A stretch of DNA of 64,000 nt from an uncultured virus (IMG/VR IMGVR_UViG_3300022924_000206). Its lineage: Duplodnaviria; Heunggongvirae; Uroviricota; Caudoviricetes. Of the stretch, positions 7,540-23,628 are shown in pieces (the first letter of the stretch is position 1; every line of letters starts with the position of its first letter). The stretch lies in the IMG/VR virus record IMGVR_UViG_3300022924_000206. One strand, 5' to 3'. The notes under the pieces were generated by a model. That model did not search any database. It was given only the letters and a program-made list of their open reading frames with translations, and was not told the DNA's origin. The position numbers and the translations under genes are program-made.

Positions 7540-7610
7540 TTATCTATAGCTTAAATGGAAAAGCTGCGGTCGACAACCCGTGAACGTCGGTTCGATTCCG
7601 GCTAGGTAAA
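7540..7610 (+). tRNA. atypical tRNA-like RNA (8-nt loop TCGACAAC)
   Basis: TTATCTA/TAGGTAA acceptor, D and T arms present. Confidence 0.45.
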
Positions 7611-7751
7611 CTACCCAAGTAAACCATGGCGGTGAGTTCTCTCCTCGGAGGCGATTCTAGTGAAGTACCGATGCTAACCATGGGCGGGATGCAATTGACC
7701 GTAGAGCTTCGGCTCTCGACTCCCTCGGGCAGGCTTAAAAACTTCACACAT

Positions 7752-10952: not shown

Positions 10953-11089
10953 GCCGCCTTAGCTCAGTGGTAGAGCACTTCCTTGGTTTCCTCGAAAGAG
11001 GATAAGGCAAGGCCTTAGTTTGGTTAACAGAATAAACGCTGTTAGCCTTGCTAAGGAAGAGGTCGTGGGTTCAAGTCCCACAGGTGGCT
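10953..11089 (+). tRNA. tRNA-Thr(GGU) with 65-nt insertion in the anticodon loop
   Basis: Removing 10987-11051 gives a canonical 72-nt tRNA with CTTCC-TTGGTAA-GGAAG arm. Confidence 0.8.
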
Positions 11090-12065: not shown

Positions 12066-12140
12066 GATGTTGTAGCTCAATTGGTTAGAGCGCCCGGCCG
12101 AATTGCTGGGTTGTTGTAGGTTCGAGTCCTGCCAATGTCA
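12066..12140 (+). tRNA. atypical tRNA-like RNA (6-bp stem, loop CGAATT)
   Basis: Normal D and T arms, non-canonical anticodon loop. Confidence 0.5.
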
Positions 12141-12294
12141 CGATAACACCGCGATCTAGAACAGATCGCGCCCGTATGAGGGTTATTGCGACCCTCCCCT
12201 TGCCTTAGAGGGAACGGACAGCGAGAGCTGATTCAGAGAAGGGATTCTCTGGTGCTACCTCGGTAGTAAGAAGAGGTTTGGTGTGTTATCACAT

Positions 12295-16265: not shown

Positions 16266-16370
16266 ACAGAAATAGCTCAATGGTAGAGCACGGCCACTAA
16301 GGCCGGGTATAAGCAAGATATAGTGTTGCAAATCACTTTAAAAGCGCAGGTTCGATTCCTGTTTTCTGTA
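16266..16370 (+). ncRNA. tRNA-like RNA, 5-nt loop centred on CUA, long variable region
   Basis: ACAGAAA/TTTCTGT acceptor, CGGCC-ACTAA-GGCCG arm, T arm. Confidence 0.55.
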
Positions 16371-16573: not shown

Positions 16574-16645
16574 GCTTCCATAGCTCAATGGTAGAGCAGG
16601 ACATTCTAAACGTTCGTGTTCTCGGTTCGAGTCCGGGTGGAGGCG
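16574..16645 (+). tRNA. amber suppressor tRNA (CUA)
   Basis: Canonical spacing puts CTA at 34-36 in loop TTCTAAA; A31-C39 mismatch. Confidence 0.8.
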
Positions 16646-16650
16646 CTTAT

Positions 16651-16722
16651 GCACCTGTGGCGCAGTGGTAGCGCGCTTCCTTGACATGGAAGAGGTCGGC
16701 AGTTCGAACCTGCCCAGGTGCA
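16651..16722 (+). tRNA. tRNA-Val(GAC)
   Basis: Cloverleaf, loop TTGACAT. Confidence 0.95.
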
Positions 16723-17010
16723 CGGCGTTACCAGTAGAACGCGCCGGGGCCACTACGAAGGTTCTCTAACATCGGCTGATGAAGGCATTAATCATGGGTT
16801 CGTAGCTCATCTTTTGCTGGAAATTCTGGAAAAACCGGATTGGTATCCGGGGTAAGAAGTGGAGTTCGAGTCTCCGAGACGTTCGGTTCGATCCCGGGCG
16901 ACGAGCGTAGGAACGCACTTACCACATGGGCTGTGGTCAACCAGGGTGTAGGTTGCTAGCCGAGCGAAGCTGGTTCGAGTCCAGTACAGTCCACACCGCG
17001 GACGGTAACC

Positions 17011-17232
17011 GAAGAGGAAGCCGGTCATCAACGAATCAGTACGGGCTTGCCGTGGGCTTGAGGCTGATCGTAGCAGTTTTAGCCGACGTTACAGGCAAAA
17101 ACCGAGGGTTGCGTCTCGATAACGCTCCTGTTTAGGCAGCTTGGGCATCTGGAGAGTCCAAGGTTTTAGCTTCGGCTATCTCGCGGAACCTGCCAAGAGT
17201 TCCGCTTGTGGGTTCGAACCCCATCCTTTTCA
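17011..17232 (+). ncRNA. 222-nt RNA closed by acceptor-like stem and T arm
   Basis: GAAGAGG/CCTTTTC + A, T arm GTGGGTTCGAACCCCAT. Confidence 0.4.
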
Positions 17233-17446
17233 CAGTCATTGTAAGACCGTTCGATTCGGTCGCTGGTTGAAGTGAGCTCGGGTTTCTTCCTCCAGTGTTT
17301 GGCACTGAGGCGGTTCGAGTCCGCAACTATACCGAGCTAGTAAGGGTATCCTCAATAGGTCGCGCAACCGCAATGACTCAAGCCGTCGTATCTTTCTGAG
17401 ATAAGCTTATTTCATAAGCTGTTAGTTCGCTCTAGCCGACGGCACC

Positions 17447-17672
17447 GATGTTAGGAGGTTGGCCTAGAAGCAGCCATCCTTTAAAGAGTCGCGAGTGGGA
17501 AATCGTTGGCAAAGGCCCACACCTAGAGCTTCGGGGTAAGTTCCCTCGAAGGAATGCCAAATAGCGAGTAACAGAGGCGTGCCAACAAATCTGTGAAATG
17601 TAACGAGTGTAAGGACCGCTCGGCTTGGATATACTTGGGTTAGAGCGTTTAGCGTAATAGCACACTACCATC
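17447..17672 (+). ncRNA. 23S rRNA H43/H44 (GTPase-associated centre) mimic with insert, copy 1
   Basis: AGGAGGTTGGCCTAGAAGCAGCCATCCTTTAAAGAGT + 162 nt + GCGTAATAGCACACT, closed by GATG/CATC. Confidence 0.75.
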
Positions 17673-17849
17673 AATCTTTCGAAGATCTTCGGATGCTTCT
17701 AAGACTCAAAGTCTAAGAAAGAACAAGAGGCGTGCCTGAAGCGCCCGTCCCGCTTTCCATACCATTCATATTGGAGATAGTGCGGGTAGGATAGGTGTAG
17801 TGAAGAATGGGATCTACACTGGCCAGGCATATTTTTGTAAGGAGCATGA

Positions 17850-18017
17850 TTGTTACTAACCACAGAAGAAATAAAAATTTTAGATGATTCAATTCTAGAT
17901 TGGGACGAAAGAAACCCCACGAAGTTGTGTCTTTTCCCTGGCTGTGAAAATGCTCATAAAGCTAGAGGCCTTTGCTCAAGTCACTATAGTAAAGCTCGCT
18001 CACTGGGCTTCGTTTGA
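17850..18017 (+). CDS. small Cys/His zinc-finger-like protein (not in ORF track)
   Basis: AAGGAG RBS, TTG start, 55 aa with CLFPGC...ARGLCSSHY. Confidence 0.6.
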   Translation: MLLTTEEIKILDDSILDWDERNPTKLCLFPGCENAHKARGLCSSHYSKARSLGFV

Positions 18018-18050
18018 AATTTTAGTAATGACAAAATCAAAGGGAATCAT

Positions 18051-18593
18051 ATGAGACTTTGGACACTTCAACCAAATGAAGTAGCTGAAAAACTACTTGC
18101 AGGTGAAACTTTCATTTGTGATCCTAAACTCTCATCTTTTGCCGATGATGAAGCTTTCAATAATGCTTATGAGTGGCTCGTTGAGCGAATGGAGTTAAAA
18201 ACTCCTAAACCAGAAAATGTAACTTGGCCAGTTTGGGCTTGGCATACTAATTATGGGGCTCAAATGAAGCCGGATCGTCGTAGACAAATGTATAGCTCCT
18301 ACGATCAATTAGATGCAATCTTAGAAATCGAAATACCGGACGATGAAGTCATTCTTTCAGATTTCGATGATTGGCACTGCGTACTCAATAATTTTGCCAT
18401 AATGAGCGATGAAGAGTACGAGAACTGGGAAGAGAAAGATAAATGGGATTGCCCTGTCTACACCGATGAGTACAAGCTCAACTCCTGGGAAAAAGTTTTT
18501 AGAAGTGATGGAGAGTTCGTTCAAGCATGTTTTTGGATGATAAAACCGGAACACTTAGTTAAAGTACACAAGCTTAGGAAGAGGTCACAATGA
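18051..18593 (+). CDS. DUF3841-like protein
   Basis: LWTLQ, AYEWL, PVWAW, LSDFDDWHCVLN, QACFW motifs. Confidence 0.75.
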   Translation: MRLWTLQPNEVAEKLLAGETFICDPKLSSFADDEAFNNAYEWLVERMELKTPKPENVTWPVWAWHTNYGAQMKPDRRRQMYSSYDQLDAILEIEIPDDEVILSDFDDWHCVLNNFAIMSDEEYENWEEKDKWDCPVYTDEYKLNSWEKVFRSDGEFVQACFWMIKPEHLVKVHKLRKRSQ

Positions 18594-18928
18594 TTTGTTT
18601 GGCTTGCGGAAAAGATTTACAGGCGGATAGTGTCAATCCTGACACTGAGTATCAGTTTGACAATGCACTTTGGATTGGTTTCTTCGGCGGCTACGGTATG
18701 TTCGTAGACGACATAGATGTATCCTGGGGCGGCGCAGAGAGAACTTTGGCTGGAGCGGCACACGAGGCGGTTATCTGCCACGAGTGTGCTCACGAGCTTT
18801 GTGCCACGGTTCCTTGGATCGAAAAGCTTTTAAAGCCCCTAAAGAGCCACGCTCATACCCTTTCCTTCTGGGAGGCTAATCCCGACCACGAAGGTTGGGA
18901 TAAACCGAAGGAGAAAGACAATGGCTGA
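18590..18928 (+). CDS. hypothetical CxxC-containing protein
   Basis: ATGA overlap, two CxxC pairs. Confidence 0.75.
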   Translation: MICLACGKDLQADSVNPDTEYQFDNALWIGFFGGYGMFVDDIDVSWGGAERTLAGAAHEAVICHECAHELCATVPWIEKLLKPLKSHAHTLSFWEANPDHEGWDKPKEKDNG

Positions 18929-19139
18929 AATCGAAGAGACTTTCGAAATTGTTTTAATCAATCCCGAGACCAATGAGCCTTATGACAAGGACGATCCCAT
19001 CGTTCTGTCTAAGGAGGATTACGATTTCATCGCCAACGAAGCAGAAAAGAAAGGCCTCACTTTCGAGGAGGAATTTCTTCACCTGGTTCGTGAGGGGCTT
19101 AAAACGCTCACTGAGCGTGATGCAAGGGATGTTACCTAA
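18921..19139 (+). CDS. small acidic hypothetical protein
   Basis: AAGGAG RBS, overlaps upstream stop. Confidence 0.7.
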   Translation: MAEIEETFEIVLINPETNEPYDKDDPIVLSKEDYDFIANEAEKKGLTFEEEFLHLVREGLKTLTERDARDVT

Positions 19140-19155
19140 GCGTTATCAAAAAGTT

Positions 19156-19195
19156 TTGACAGAGGTTGCATAATGTCGTAGCCTTGTGTTATAGT
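19156..19195 (+). promoter_or_regulatory. sigma-70-like promoter(s) for the large ncRNA
   Basis: TTGACA-17-TAGCCT and TTGCAT-18-TATAGT. Confidence 0.55.
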
Positions 19196-19200
19196 AGAAC

Positions 19201-20013
19201 TACTGAATCAAACGACAAACCTTCGGGTGAGGCGGGAGATGAAGTAACTCCGGCATGACGGATAAACCAAGGCAACTTGGGGAAAGGGATTCCTGACAGG
19301 ATCCCGCCTGAAAAGGCAAATCATGCACTTCACAAGATTCAGCAATCGTCGCCAAAAAGGCGGTTGCCATGTGAAAAGGTAGTTGGATCAAAGGCCGAAC
19401 TTGGTGGAGATCTGAAACGGGTAACTTGCTCGCTAAAAACAACATATGCTGACTCTCATGTTTTTGTGGAAGGTGTTTAGTCCGAGGCTTGGCGGCCAAG
19501 GGCGGATGCCATAGAAAGGGAATCGGGACGAAGGTTTCGAGGAACTGAAAGAAGCGTAAGTAGTCGCCAACGAAAGCGCTTGAGGAAGTGGAGCATTTCT
19601 TAGCCCGAAAGGGAGAGGAAACTTCGAGGAGGAGCACTTCCCGCGTCAAAAACCTAACTCAATTGGCAGAGTGCCTCCCTATTAAGGAGGAAGTTGCAGG
19701 TTCAAACCCTGTGGTTTCTAAAAGCAAAAGCCTTCTCCAGTAGATAAGCAAAAGCGCCCTAATCCCTGGCTCTTCGGAGAACCAGGGCGAAGGATGGCCG
19801 CAAGCCTGAATTTGTTGGTAGTCGAATGTAACGCAACTCAGTGGGTAGCTCCTAATGAGTGAGTGAAAAGACGCCGAGCAGCTGTCTACTTATGGAATAG
19901 TCAACCTAAATGACCGGGCGTGGATGATAGCATGGGTAACATGCTGGATCAGGAAGCTAATAAATACGGCTTCTGAAGTCATCCAAGTGAGGCTGTAATC
20001 TCAGGCCACACCA
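19201..20013 (+). ncRNA. ~810-nt structured RNA, GOLLD-like, with embedded tRNA
   Basis: No credible ORF, many tetraloop hairpins, own promoter and terminator, internal tRNA. Confidence 0.55.
19648..19720 (+). tRNA. embedded tRNA-like element, anticodon AUU (Asn)
   Basis: CCTCC-CTATTAA-GGAGG arm, D and T arms, weak acceptor. Confidence 0.6.
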
Positions 20014-20020
20014 AAAACTT

Positions 20021-20061
20021 CGAATGGTCTCCTAACTTCGGTTAGGAGACCATTCGTATTT
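20021..20061 (+). terminator. intrinsic terminator
   Basis: CGAATGGTCTCCTAAC-TTCG-GTTAGGAGACCATTCG then TATTT. Confidence 0.8.
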
Positions 20062-20082
20062 AACAATCCTAGGGAGAAAGTA

Positions 20083-20298
20083 ATGGCAAAGAGATTTTCC
20101 GTCTCAGAGAGCGAAGGTTCTCAGCGGTCATATTCATATCTTTTAGAAGATAAAGATCTTCCTCTAGGTATTTTCACCGACAACAATGCTCCGGATGAAA
20201 TCAACTGGGAGTTAGAGTCACTTGGACAAAGTGACTATGCTCCAATGTTTCTCTGGGAGCCTGACGGTAACCTCATTTATGAGGTAAAAGAAGCTTGA
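20083..20298 (+). CDS. hypothetical protein
   Basis: GGAG RBS, 71 aa. Confidence 0.65.
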   Translation: MAKRFSVSESEGSQRSYSYLLEDKDLPLGIFTDNNAPDEINWELESLGQSDYAPMFLWEPDGNLIYEVKEA

Positions 20299-20307
20299 GT
20301 GCTTCAT

Positions 20308-20381
20308 CGGGGTGTGGGGCAGCTTGGTAGCCTGCTTGATTCGGATTCAAGAGGTCGCAGGTTCAAATCCTGCCATCCCGA
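20308..20381 (+). tRNA. tRNA-Pro(CGG)
   Basis: Cloverleaf, loop TTCGGAT. Confidence 0.93.
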
Positions 20382-20399
20382 CTTATAGAAGGAGATAAA

Positions 20400-21188
20400 A
20401 TGGTTGAGTACGCCGGAATTCGTAATGTTTTCAGAGAAATAGAAAACTTTGACGAAAACAAGCCAATTATCTTTATGGATGTTGACGGAGTTATAAACGC
20501 TCTTCCCTTTGATCGTGAATGGGTTGGGCCAGAAATTCCACCTGAAACCGGACTTTATGATCCGATCTATTACGATCCAAACAATTGGAAAACTGTTCGT
20601 ATAGAACATAATCCCGAGCTACACTATCCTATTAGTAAGGAACTCACGGTAGATTTTGATCGCATGCTCGATTATCCTAAAGAATACACAGATAATTTAG
20701 ATGAACAGCAAGCAGAGAAACGCTATAAGAAGCTTCGTATAAACCTCATGGAGGAAATGCTAGCTGAACTACGAGAAATAGTTGAAGAATATGACCTCCA
20801 GGTCATTTATCTGACCTATTGGCGCTCTGAAGCCCTTAGGCTTTTAGAGCCGGAACTTCAACTCGGAGCTACTGCTTATCTGGATTGGCGAACTAATTCT
20901 GATCTCGGTCACAAGATGAAAATTCATGCTATCCATGCACTCTATGAAGAGACCAATATTAGAACTCCTTTCATAGTTTTGGATGATGAATCCACGGCGG
21001 GGCTCCACGATGACAGTGTTCTCTGGCAGGTGAACCCTATATTTGCGGATAAATATCCTGAGCGAACTCTTCAGTTTGGAGAGCTTAATAAGATTCCTAA
21101 ATTGATCTTCCAACAGGATGCTCGTTGGGGAATCGAAAGAGCTCATCTCGCTAAGATTAGAGAGTTTGCAAAATCACTCAAAGCATGA
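20400..21188 (+). CDS. HAD phosphatase (Swiss-Army-knife RNA-repair HAD-like)
   Basis: FMDVDGVIN motif I, TYW motif II, VLDD motif IV. Confidence 0.7.
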   Translation: MVEYAGIRNVFREIENFDENKPIIFMDVDGVINALPFDREWVGPEIPPETGLYDPIYYDPNNWKTVRIEHNPELHYPISKELTVDFDRMLDYPKEYTDNLDEQQAEKRYKKLRINLMEEMLAELREIVEEYDLQVIYLTYWRSEALRLLEPELQLGATAYLDWRTNSDLGHKMKIHAIHALYEETNIRTPFIVLDDESTAGLHDDSVLWQVNPIFADKYPERTLQFGELNKIPKLIFQQDARWGIERAHLAKIREFAKSLKA

Positions 21189-21206
21189 TAGGGTCATGCT
21201 ATAACT

Positions 21207-21448
21207 AAAAAGAGGTACCTGCGGAACGCTACTGGCCTTCGGGCTGGAGGAAACTCCGGACACCTTGACAATCCTCGTGTGGAAGACTTCGGTCATTGAC
21301 CACAAAGCTGCCCTAATAAGGCGGGTGATAGAGGCTCGGGTGCAACTCAAAACAGTTCTAGGATCTTGTCATCCTTTGATGAACGGGTATGGGGCATAGA
21401 TTGATCGCGTTCTAAAACAGAATCCGGGTTATGGCAGGTACCTCTTTT
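21207..21448 (+). ncRNA. rnpB: compact RNase P RNA
   Basis: P1 AAGAGGTACCTGC/GCAGGTACCTCTT; CR-I GAGGAAACTCCGGAC; CR-V ACAGAATCCGGGTTAT. Confidence 0.85.
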
Positions 21449-21583
21449 AGTTTACTAACCTCCGCACTTGTCGGCGTCTATTACGCCACAGGAACGCGGA
21501 GGTTTCGCTGTAACAGCCGAAATCAATTGGCTTGAACAACGTCACACAAAACCTACGCCGTGGCTTAGATCGCCGTGTAGCGT

Positions 21584-21656
21584 GCCACCTTAGCTCAGTT
21601 GGTAGAGCAGCTATTTCGTAAGTAGCAGGTCGCCGGTTCGATTCCGGCAGGTGGCT
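21584..21656 (+). tRNA. tRNA-Thr(CGU)
   Basis: Cloverleaf, loop TTCGTAA. Confidence 0.95.
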
Positions 21657-21658
21657 CG

Positions 21659-21887
21659 GATGTTTGGGAGGTTGGCTTAGAAGCAGCAATCCTTTAAAGA
21701 GTCCGGAATGCGTTGAAGTTGCCTACAAATACGCATACCTTACGGCGGTGAGCCAAGGAATCACCGCGAGGCCCCAGTAACGAGTAGACTCCGATGGCAA
21801 TCGAGAGACGAAGGGAAAGCGGGTTGGTCACCTGCGACGGGGATTTACGAAGGTCAGACGGTTTAGCGTAATAGCACACCACTCATC
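21659..21887 (+). ncRNA. 23S rRNA H43/H44 mimic with insert, copy 2
   Basis: GGGAGGTTGGCTTAGAAGCAGCAATCCTTTAAAGAGT + 163 nt + GCGTAATAGCACACC, closed by GATG/CATC. Confidence 0.75.
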
Positions 21888-21953
21888 TCAATTTTGATAA
21901 AACAACTTACTTGTATTTCGCAAGCGGCAGAGCTATCTAAAGGAGAGGCGAAA

Positions 21954-22256
21954 GTGAAGAACTTACCAGCACCGAGCAAAATGCCGGTACTCCCATCACC
22001 TGAAGAGCTCAAGAGTTTTCCGGATCCGGGAGCTCGTTTTGAGCAGTGGTCGAAGGACTGTGACCACATCATGGAGCTCAACGATGAGCTATTTGAAAAA
22101 GCTCTCAAAAGAATGAAATGGTGCTCATTCCTCAACGGAATGCTAAACCGACCTCTCACCGAACATTTCGCCTGGTGTCCCCACAATGATTGGGATGCGT
22201 ATTGGCAGGAGCTCGGCTGGCCGGAGTTGCCTCAAATGACCTCCACGGGGCTCTAA
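21954..22256 (+). CDS. hypothetical protein
   Basis: AAGGAGAGG RBS before GTG. Confidence 0.6.
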   Translation: MKNLPAPSKMPVLPSPEELKSFPDPGARFEQWSKDCDHIMELNDELFEKALKRMKWCSFLNGMLNRPLTEHFAWCPHNDWDAYWQELGWPELPQMTSTGL

Positions 22257-22317
22257 ACCCTCGTTTTAAAAAACGAACTAATCGTATTTCCACTCACAGT
22301 TTCGGTACCATATTTCC

Positions 22318-23118
22318 ATGAGCTCCTCTTTCGACATTGCAACAATTAATCCTTTACGGATATTGGTGGTCGGGGATTGGCATAGGAACATTCACGCCGC
22401 ATTTCCTAAAAAAGTGGTCGCCTATGCTAAAAGCATAGGTATCGAAGTAATCCTCCACGTGGGAGACTTCGGCTATAAGTACGGCGTCAGGGGGAATGAT
22501 GCTTACATGTTTGAAAAACCTCTCCATCGCGCTCTTCAGGAGGCTGGCATTCAACTTGTTTGGGTGGATGGTAACCATGAGAACCATGAATATTTGAGAG
22601 CTCTTCCTCTACTACCAAATGGTTTCGCTCAAACCGGAGCTAGAGGAAACATCTATTACGCTCCCCGCGGACTCCGCTGGCAATGGAGTGGAAGAACTTT
22701 CGGTGCCCTCGGCGGCGCATTGTCAATCAATGCTGCGCGCCTACAGGAGGGTGTTACTCTTTTCGCCGATTTAGAGGAACCCACCTACGAAGATCTCGAC
22801 AAACTAGGTAAAGATAAGTTAGATTATCTTGTTTGTCACGATGTACCCATGAGAGTAGCCTTGAAATCTATTTTTGGGGTACCGGTTAAAAGTGAAACAC
22901 GAATTGTTTTGCAGAAAGCCGTGGATACTTTGAAACCTGAAAGAGTTTTTTCGGGTCATTGGCATCAGCGTAGCGATTTCCGTATTCCTAGAGATGATGA
23001 TGGGGAAACCTTTGGTCACATCTTGGATAAGGAATTCACAGTTGGTAATATACTTATTCTTAACCTCGAAGACAACACCATTGAAAACCCTCCGGCCAAT
23101 TGGCAAGAGCAAAACTAA
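22318..23118 (+). CDS. calcineurin-like metallophosphoesterase
   Basis: GDWH, GDFG, GNHE, GHWH motifs. Confidence 0.9.
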   Translation: MSSSFDIATINPLRILVVGDWHRNIHAAFPKKVVAYAKSIGIEVILHVGDFGYKYGVRGNDAYMFEKPLHRALQEAGIQLVWVDGNHENHEYLRALPLLPNGFAQTGARGNIYYAPRGLRWQWSGRTFGALGGALSINAARLQEGVTLFADLEEPTYEDLDKLGKDKLDYLVCHDVPMRVALKSIFGVPVKSETRIVLQKAVDTLKPERVFSGHWHQRSDFRIPRDDDGETFGHILDKEFTVGNILILNLEDNTIENPPANWQEQN

Positions 23119-23130
23119 GAAAGGCCGATC

Positions 23131-23628
23131 GTGGCTACACATTACGAATCAGTACTAGAGTTTTATAAAAAATTCGGTCAGGAGGCTTTCATTGCCGAAC
23201 GTCCGGGGCTAGATGAAGAGAACATCTCTCCTGCTCGCCTTGAGCTAAAAATGGGGCTTATCGCGGAGGAGTTCTTTGAACTTGTCCAAGCTGTCTACGG
23301 TGGCGTAGCTGCCAAAGTTCTTGAGGCAGCTTGGGAAGTTGCTAAAGAACAGGATGAAGGTAACAGGGACTTAGTGGAAACAGCCGATGCTCTCGCTGAT
23401 CTTGACTACGTTTTGAACGGTCTAGCCATCGAAGCTGGAATTACCGCCGACGCCGTTTTCGATGAAGTCCACTCATCTAATCTCAGCAAGCTAGATGAGA
23501 ATGGTTTGGTCATAATGTCGGATGGAGTAACTCCCTCTGAGTATGACGGACAGGTGAAGCCGGTCGGAAAGATCCTCAAGAGCAAGCATTTCCGTGAGCC
23601 TGACATCGCCGGAGTCCTCGGAATCTAA
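23131..23628 (+). CDS. MazG/PRA-PH-like NTP pyrophosphohydrolase
   Basis: EEFFEL, DALADLDYV, VHSSNLSK, GKILK. Confidence 0.85.
   Translation: MATHYESVLEFYKKFGQEAFIAERPGLDEENISPARLELKMGLIAEEFFELVQAVYGGVAAKVLEAAWEVAKEQDEGNRDLVETADALADLDYVLNGLAIEAGITADAVFDEVHSSNLSKLDENGLVIMSDGVTPSEYDGQVKPVGKILKSKHFREPDIAGVLGI

Follow-up and report, generated by a model that had tools for sequence, protein, structure and literature searches.

The GTPase-associated centre (GAC) of bacterial 23S ribosomal RNA (rRNA) is made of the top of helix H42 together with H43 and H44. It binds the protein uL11 and meets the translation GTPases. According to an excerpt of one report (PMC8661411), the Tre23 toxin ADP-ribosylates H44 over bases 1095-1098. 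In this study we analyzed a stretch of 64,000 nucleotides (nt) from the uncultured virus IMGVR_UViG_3300022924_000206 (Caudoviricetes), which we call the window. The window belongs to a very large phage-like genome and has 52 calls of transfer RNA (tRNA) or transfer-messenger RNA (tmRNA), together with a signal recognition particle RNA, a tmRNA and a GOLLD RNA. It contains two GAC-like RNAs, here called copy 1 and copy 2, and an insert of about 160 nt splits the GAC-like head of each. We think, with a probability of about 0.72, that these inserts are permanent folded side arms of a phage non-coding RNA whose ends rebuild the 23S GAC, and that each arm is an integral second domain of that RNA.

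The GAC heads and the site of the arms

A pattern search for both halves of the GAC core, with zero or one mismatch, found exactly two mimics in the window. The 5' halves of the heads end at 17489 (copy 1) and 21702 (copy 2), and the 3' halves (GCGUAAUAGCACAC) begin at 17652 and 21866. When the two halves were joined, the head of copy 1 was identical to Salmonella 23S rRNA at 47 of the 58 positions of E. coli 1051-1108, and that of copy 2 at 45 of the 58. Changes at paired positions are compensated (1058/1080, U-A to G-C; 1090/1101, A-U to U-A), and neither the 1067 loop nor the 1095 loop differs from Salmonella. The Rfam model LSU_rRNA_bacteria gave a sub-threshold match to the H43 part alone in both copies.

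In both copies the insert lies between E. coli 1090 and 1091. It occupies 17490-17651 (162 nt) in copy 1 and 21703-21865 (163 nt) in copy 2; that is, 17490 is the first base of one insert and 21865 the last base of the other. The nearly identical lengths given in the first-pass annotation of this DNA therefore stand, with the UUUA at the 3' end counted in. The arm exits H44 as a third helix between the pairs 1090-1101 and 1091-1100, and a UUU(A/G) linker returns to the H44 hairpin. The pairs 1091-1100 and 1092-1099 and the hairpin GC-GUAAUA-GC are the same as in 23S rRNA in both copies.

To see the two copies among their relatives, we gathered a family by head-based patterns in IMG/VR and in metagenomes. 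Identical sequences were collapsed, both anchors had to lie within 450 nt, and loci that lacked an anchor were dropped. The family has 80 distinct members, including the two window copies. Both copies possess the head of the family: an H43 that bears the 1067 loop, the H44 hairpin GC-GUAAYA-GC, the UUUAAAGAGU joiner and an H42-like stem that closes on itself. They also possess its arm features, that is, an arm at 1090/1091, then UUU(G/A), and A at 1101. This A1101 is present in family members whose retrieval pattern left that base free.

All 80 members carry an arm at the 1090/1091 site. The arms range from 36 to 360 nt and belong to unrelated sequence classes. The linker after the arm is UUUG in 61 members, UUUA in 14 and a near variant in 5, so that UUU(G/A) occurs in 75 of the 80. 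A pattern search of IMG/VR returned no member with a gap of 0-30 nt at the arm site. The head was also found in unannotated DNA of cultured phages (Pectobacterium phage CBB, Cronobacter phage GAP32, Xanthomonas phage XacN1, Ralstonia phage RSP15, Aeromonas phage 4_4572 and several Pseudomonas phages). Among 185,579 species-representative bacterial and archaeal genomes there were six pattern matches, of which three were family members, all on contigs of metagenome-assembled genomes, and three were chance matches. We scanned 60 of the 78 distinct loci for tRNA genes, and 42 had at least one in their flanks of 300-520 nt; where we inspected the loci by eye, the tRNA gene and the mimic shared a strand. 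Copy 2 itself begins one base after a tRNA-Thr gene (21584-21657). The arms of the window and of 20 diverse members matched nothing in Rfam 15, and our searches of open-access text returned no phage mimic of the GAC or of rRNA. The GAC-mimic RNA family as a whole is absent from Rfam 15 too and is apparently undescribed, and the arm is a new structural variant within it.

The first-pass annotation had suggested that the inserts are either a second functional domain or an excisable intron or ribozyme whose removal would restore an intact H44. The part of this proposal that names a second structured domain fits our results. The other part supposes a self-splicing intron or self-cleaving ribozyme whose removal would join GAGU to GCGUAAUAG in a plain GAC mimic, and we judge it very improbable. 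It draws on the U that ends the 5' flank and on the G that is the last arm-side base (UUUG) in 61 of the 80 relatives, which superficially resemble group I splice sites, and on the conserved core and possible pseudoknots of the arm. However, both window arms end in A (UUUA), not in the terminal G of a group I intron, the arms of relatives are as short as 36 nt, and members with a closed arm site were not seen in IMG/VR. Group I introns are usually longer than the 158-159 nt of the window arms. In the interval 16700-22400, Rfam models of introns, which cover the group I P3-P7 core, and of self-cleaving ribozymes (hammerhead, twister, HDV-like, pistol, hatchet and others) gave no match at E <= 1, and 20 other family members were likewise without one at E <= 0.1. 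Moreover, the H44 pairs that flank the branch, 1090-1101, 1091-1100 and 1092-1099, are already intact in the window copies, and therefore nothing needs to be restored by excision.

We also looked at two soil RNA runs and two DNA runs. The contigs that fell on 17400-17550 and 21628-21778 continue as genuine 23S rRNA (AGCTCACTGG...). The arms had no read cover in these runs, save for one identical DNA contig in run X3 over 21768-21900; no joint was spanned, and these data are silent on splicing. Taken together, excision of the arm found no support.

The fold of the arms and the junction at their base

The two inserts had been described as different in sequence. They are indeed diverged, but they are detectable paralogs: their global alignment scored 72, against 37.5 +/- 7.9 in shuffled sequences, and none of 500 shuffles scored as high. 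We derived the shared fold by reading both sequences side by side. The fold has seven helices (P1, P2, P3, P3a, P6, P4 and P5), whose positions agree within 5 nt between the copies and are listed in Table 1. P3 bears the hairpin P3a and the stem P6, and P6 encloses the hairpins P4 and P5 and conserved junction strands.

All proposed pairs are canonical, 36 in copy 1 and 37 in copy 2. Among the 35 pairs that can be compared, 10 are the same, 3 are changed on one side, 22 are changed on both sides in a compensatory manner, and none is broken. In this pair comparison only 23 of 70 paired bases are identical between the arms. With a lenient alignment made freely for each segment, identity was 35/52 (67%) in junction strands, 38/77 (49%) in helix strands and 21/49 (43%) in hairpin loops. 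That is, the junction strands are more conserved than the helices. These values bear out the first-pass view that the fold is under selection. Two of its more specific observations also agree with ours. The closing stem covaries (CGC/GCG in copy 1, CCG/CGG in copy 2), and in each copy it is followed by UUUA and then by GCGUAAUAGC. The motif A(A/G)TA(G/A)CGAGTA lies before the distal hairpin, as AAUAGCGAGUA in copy 1 and AGUAACGAGUA in copy 2.

We then used a threading test that is independent of alignment, in which the helices of the minimum free energy (MFE) structure of copy 2 were placed on copy 1 with a slack of +/-5 nt per strand and compared with dinucleotide shuffles. The helices of copy 2 formed 37 of 38 pairs on copy 1, against 32.3 +/- 1.5 in the null, and 4 of 2000 shuffles equalled this score. 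The reverse control, with the MFE helices of copy 1 on copy 2, was at chance level (974/2000), and the shared fold is not the MFE structure of copy 1. The hand fold of copy 2 (-40.6 kcal/mol) has the topology of its MFE structure (-45.9 kcal/mol), and the same helices appear in the MFE structure of the whole RNA.

That no selected fold exists at all, and that the shared helices come from common descent and chance, is a reading that the paralogy of the arms and their unremarkable MFE z-scores could favor. We consider it extremely improbable, because 22 of 35 pairs are changed on both sides with none broken while paired-base identity is only 23/70, because so few shuffles reach the threading score, and because the motif at the arm base recurs with covariation in 24 family members.

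This motif concerns the foot of the arm. As excerpts of the literature describe it, in a kink-turn (k-turn) a loop of three nucleotides precedes G.A and A.G pairs (PMC5061560), and a k-junction keeps the tandem G:A pairs and adds a third helix, which leaves from the non-bulged strand across from the loop (PMC10573300). In the window copies, UUA-GA and UCA-GA stand opposite GA, which agrees with the G.A pairs of a k-turn. P2 starts right after the A at position 1n, and P1 and P3 are canonical, in agreement with a third helix. In this layout the 3-bp P1 would be the non-canonical stem, U-N-A the loop on the 3' strand, P2 the helix on the opposite strand and P3 the canonical stem. The arm base thus reads as a kink-turn three-way junction, common to 24 of the 80 members.

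These 24 arms, which we call K-type, end in U-N-A-G-A-NNN, and they include both window copies, CBB (L106) and GAP32 (L109). P1 has three canonical pairs of three in all 24, with 11 different types of P1. Position 5 of the arm (1n) is A in 23 of the 24, against 10 of the 56 other arms, and position 4 (2n) is mostly G (15 arms), otherwise A (5), C (2) or U (2). In 23 of the 24 a helix starts directly after the A at 1n and is followed by the C stem, usually with a single A between them (14/23). The K-type share was 10/64 in the samples whose search pattern left the 3' end of the arm free.

Within the K-type arms there is a large subclass (L004, L022, L031, L045, L106, L109, L121 and L136, including CBB and GAP32) with CAGGGGAAG(G/A)A...AAGUACAGUU...GGGCG(A/G)AGCC after the T helix, in which the strands GGGGAAG and AGACCC could form a second tandem G.A motif. 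A second recurrent arm class (L001, L003, L020, L026, L033, L046, L059, L096 and L104) starts with AGGNC or similar, ends with ...CACCCC(A/G)(G/U)AA(A/C)(U/C)GGUAAGG... just before the closing stem, and is without the k-turn signature.

As for contacts between loops, the first-pass annotation had claimed that the first hairpin loop can pair with a distal loop in both copies. Among the eight unpaired segments of each copy, the loops of P2 and P4 were the best Watson-Crick loop pair in both. In copy 1, GUUGGCA (17505-11) of a 16-nt loop can form 7 bp with UGCCAAC (17580-86) of a 14-nt loop, with p of about 0.001 in loop shuffles; here the claim holds well. The pairing in copy 2 (UUGCC with GGCAA) is weaker than had been implied, with p = 0.019 for the 4-nt GGCA tetraloop and p = 0.063 for 5 bp that use one base of the stem. 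Complements of 7 bp are common, occurring somewhere in 35% of 300 shuffled inserts; the support for such a kiss therefore comes from the same loop pair ranking top in both copies. There is a second candidate pairing, of the conserved GAGUA of J6/4 with UAC of J6/3 (4 bp, invariant in both copies), which would be a true pseudoknot across P6.

The polarity of the loops is reversed between the copies: P2 has GGCA and P4 has UGCC in copy 1, and P2 has UGCC and P4 has GGCA in copy 2. This swap would be covariation for an intramolecular kiss, but it equally permits pairing between two RNAs. The copies might then kiss through GGCA and UGCC into dimers or larger assemblies that show several GAC heads, since P2-P2' and P4-P4' contacts between RNAs are as possible as P2-P4 within one. 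In favor of this, a GOLLD RNA sits between the two window copies, and an excerpt of one report (10.1101/2024.12.08.627333) states that this RNA class forms RNA-only complexes. The contact, however, has only 4-7 bp, taken from two sequences, and we regard an intermolecular role as quite improbable.

Several points weigh against a selected and permanent arm fold as we have described it. The MFE of the whole RNA is no lower than that of shuffles (z = +0.75 in copy 1 and +0.16 in copy 2), and the MFE structure of copy 1 is another fold, 7.5 kcal/mol below the shared one; by MFE folding alone, then, the two copies do not agree in fold and the z-scores carry no signal. The slack allowed in threading makes its null high (32.3/38). 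The arms are paralogs, so their similarity in fold is partly inherited. DNA-pattern searches and a search of protein neighbours returned no third sequence of the arm type of the window, and the covariation of the inner helices therefore rests on two sequences. The kiss of copy 2 would consume the whole 4-nt loop, which is sterically awkward unless inner pairs of P4 open. For 12 of the 24 K-type members the search pattern itself included AGA, which to some degree builds in the 3' motif. Nor are single k-junction parses unusual among shuffled arms, for typically 10-25% of shuffles score as well, and the weight for the k-junction therefore lies in recurrence and covariation. With these points counted, the two window arms are paralogs of one arm type, and the pair changes show a fold kept by compensatory change.

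Three other ideas were tried and rejected. A strand swap with the H43 of the same RNA was suggested by the P4 loop of copy 1, which complements the H43 5' strand (6 bp, p = 0.025), but only 2 of the 80 family arms, no more than chance would give, reached p <= 0.05 with either strand. Concerning mimicry of another region of Salmonella 23S rRNA, the best local match of copy 1, its P2 region against rRNA immediately 5' of the GAC, scored 26 (8/200 shuffles equal), and copy 2 gave none (58/200). By eye, CGAGUA looked similar to the sarcin-ricin loop, but this resemblance was not borne out.

Table 1. Positions of the head halves and arm elements of the two GAC-mimic RNAs in the window
Feature	Position	Strand	Basis and remarks
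Copy 1 GAC mimic, 5' half (top of H42, H43, H44 5' strand)	17447..17489	+	E. coli 1051 = 17450, 1090 = 17489; Rfam LSU partial match 17456-17480; core pattern with 1 mismatch
Copy 1 arm	17490..17651	+	158 nt + UUUA linker 17648-51; hand fold, all pairs canonical, -34.2 kcal/mol
Copy 1 P1 (arm closing stem, CGC/GCG)	17490-92/17645-47	+	hand fold
Copy 1 G.A pairs	17493-94 with 17643-44	+	hand fold
Copy 1 P2 (T helix)	17495-99/17516-20, loop 17500-15	+	hand fold
Copy 1 P3 (C helix)	17521-25/17636-40	+	hand fold
Copy 1 P3a	17529-36/17544-51	+	hand fold
Copy 1 P6	17557-60/17625-28	+	hand fold
Copy 1 motif AUAGCGAGUA	17561-70	+	sequence
Copy 1 P4	17571-75/17590-94, loop 17576-89	+	hand fold
Copy 1 P5	17604-09/17617-22	+	hand fold
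Copy 1 J6/3	17629-35	+	hand fold
Copy 1 GAC mimic, 3' half (H44 hairpin GC-GUAAUA-GC, A1101, H42 3' strand)	17652..17672	+	core pattern, 23S alignment
Copy 2 GAC mimic, 5' half	21658..21702	+	E. coli 1051 = 21663, 1090 = 21702; Rfam LSU partial match 21668-21715
Copy 2 arm	21703..21865	+	159 nt + UUUA linker 21862-65; hand fold, -40.6 kcal/mol
Copy 2 P1 (arm closing stem, CCG/CGG)	21703-05/21859-61	+	hand fold
Copy 2 G.A pairs	21706-07 with 21857-58	+	hand fold
Copy 2 P2	21708-12/21732-36, loop 21713-31	+	hand fold
Copy 2 P3	21737-41/21850-54	+	hand fold
Copy 2 P3a	21745-51/21761-67	+	hand fold
Copy 2 P6	21772-75/21839-42	+	hand fold
Copy 2 motif AGUAACGAGUAGA	21776-88	+	sequence
Copy 2 P4	21789-95/21800-07, GGCA loop 21796-99	+	hand fold
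Copy 2 P5	21819-24/21830-35	+	hand fold
Copy 2 J6/3	21843-49	+	hand fold
Copy 2 GAC mimic, 3' half	21866..21887	+	core pattern, 23S alignment

Possible roles of the arm and the surrounding genes

The function of the arm can only be inferred, and we propose the following course. The RNA would be released from a tRNA-type precursor, and the arm would stay in the mature RNA. The kink would fold the arm back and so let the loops of P2 and P4 kiss, which would make the domain more compact. The arm would serve the conserved GAC head as a peripheral domain, either as a buttress for the fragile tertiary fold that the head has off the ribosome, or as the bearer of a second binding surface. Off the ribosome, the head itself may imitate the site of uL11, factors or toxins, or may be a decoy that draws off whatever attacks this site.

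The arm might do more than stabilize: as a sensor or adaptor domain in its own right, it would bind some small molecule, or a particular protein of the phage or the host, and would either gate the GAC head or attach a further component to it. Its junction strands are conserved while its helices are scrambled by compensatory change, a pattern typical of a binding pocket, and distinct arm classes recur across phages. The roles that excerpts of the literature give to k-turns (PMC5061560, PMC4316175), which mediate tertiary contacts, bind L7Ae-family proteins and help to build the ligand pockets of riboswitches, are also counted for it. On the other hand, no arm of the window region or of the 20 other members matched a riboswitch or other Rfam family. 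A single ligand common to all phages is also disfavored, since their arm classes are unrelated although the head hardly varies. A role of this kind thus appears unlikely to us.

Going further along this line, and as a speculation that we hold to be rather doubtful, the arm could be a second working surface and the RNA a two-handed adaptor. The head would capture those that recognize the GAC (free uL11, a translation GTPase, or a toxin such as the H44 ADP-ribosyltransferase Tre23), and the k-junction arm would hold, report or multimerize the complex. The paralogs may pair through their swapped GGCA/UGCC loops, and phages may exchange arms according to the partner.

Concerning the surroundings, the window also has genes for a split DNA polymerase III alpha, two ClpP proteins, a CCA-adding/poly(A) polymerase-type enzyme and a seryl-tRNA synthetase. 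A DUF3841 protein (18051-18593, +) and a HAD_SAK_2 "Swiss Army Knife" RNA-repair HAD domain (20400-21188, +) are encoded around the mimics, the latter between the two copies. Downstream of copy 2 are genes for a calcineurin-like metallophosphoesterase (22318-23118, +) and a MazG/PRA-PH-type pyrophosphohydrolase (23131-23628, +). At XacN1 (L142, AP018399.1, about 150538-150583) the gene immediately upstream of the GAC head, which lies in unannotated DNA, is annotated as 2'-5' RNA ligase. Neighbours of the RNA-repair type fit a conflict over translation RNAs and prove nothing.

Between the HAD_SAK gene and tRNA-Thr there is a 231-nt RNA (21213-21443, +) with a long closing stem, which matches the archaeal RNase P model from end to end (67.7 bits, E 1e-17, which is below the gathering score of 84). 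It retains GGAGGAAACUCC and ACAGAAUCCGGGUUA elements and may be a phage-encoded minimal RNase P RNA. The GOLLD RNA (19213-20007, +, 171.8 bits), which also lies between the two mimic copies, embeds a tRNA-Asn(att) at 19648-19720. Two soil metatranscriptome runs contained contigs identical to about 19260-19877 of the window and a diverged relative over 19213-19543; RNA libraries thus also contain sequence that lies upstream of the Rfam match.

Several tRNA-like features were noted as well. The tRNA at 16574-16646 has the anticodon CUA (called Pyl, amber-suppressor type), and the tRNA-like genes at 7540-7611 and 12066-12141 have four-base anticodons by ARAGORN. Rfam tRNA matches at 10953-11089 (137 nt) and 16266-16370 (105 nt), uncalled by ARAGORN, may be interrupted tRNA genes. 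Upstream of copy 1 are a weak tRNA-Sec-like match (16927-16993, E 0.54) and, in 17000-17440 (+), the tRNA-like T-arm fragments GGUUCGAACCCC and GGUUCGAGUCCGC with no called tRNA.

Comparison with known systems

The results describe a modular RNA, in which a near-invariant rRNA-like head is joined to an evolvable folded arm at one fixed site. One large class of arms starts with what reads by sequence as a k-junction, and together with the modularity this gives a concrete structural model. The window paralogs form a natural set of compensatory mutants, and the cultured phages with the same arm base, CBB and GAP32, make the RNA experimentally reachable. The tRNA genes and the nearby genes of RNA-repair type (HAD_SAK_2 and metallophosphoesterase; the 2'-5' RNA ligase at XacN1) would link the mimic to conflicts over translation RNA.

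The fixed insertion site, the conserved core and the variable arm (36-360 nt, unrelated classes) resemble the expansion segments and intervening sequences of rRNA and the peripheral elements of group I introns and RNase P. The carrier here, in contrast, is a small phage RNA and neither an rRNA nor a ribozyme. The intervening sequences of 23S rRNA are cut out by RNase III, whereas nothing here indicates cutting.

The leaders of ribosomal-protein operons are alike in that an RNA imitates the protein-binding site of rRNA. Those leaders are short cis-acting mRNA elements before ribosomal-protein genes, and the phage mimic is a separate RNA among tRNA genes; no ribosomal-protein gene was found in the window among the 50 scanned of 61 open reading frames called at >=90 amino acids.

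With the k-turns and k-junctions studied by the Lilley laboratory, for example in the thiamine pyrophosphate (TPP) riboswitch, the arm base shares the three-nucleotide loop, the G.A and A.G pairs and the third helix on the non-bulged strand. It differs from the known k-turns in that it is recognized solely by its sequence pattern, and in that its non-canonical stem has 3 bp and runs straight into the H44 junction.

Another close system is the bacterial 23S GAC itself (E. coli 1051-1108, the uL11-binding 58-mer), which the head of both RNAs resembles, with changed pairs compensated and the same 1067 and 1095 loops. Unlike the 23S GAC, the phage RNA is a stand-alone element of a tRNA cluster, where a short H42-like stem of its own closes it, and it carries between 1090 and 1091 an arm of about 160 nt that is absent from the Salmonella sequence.

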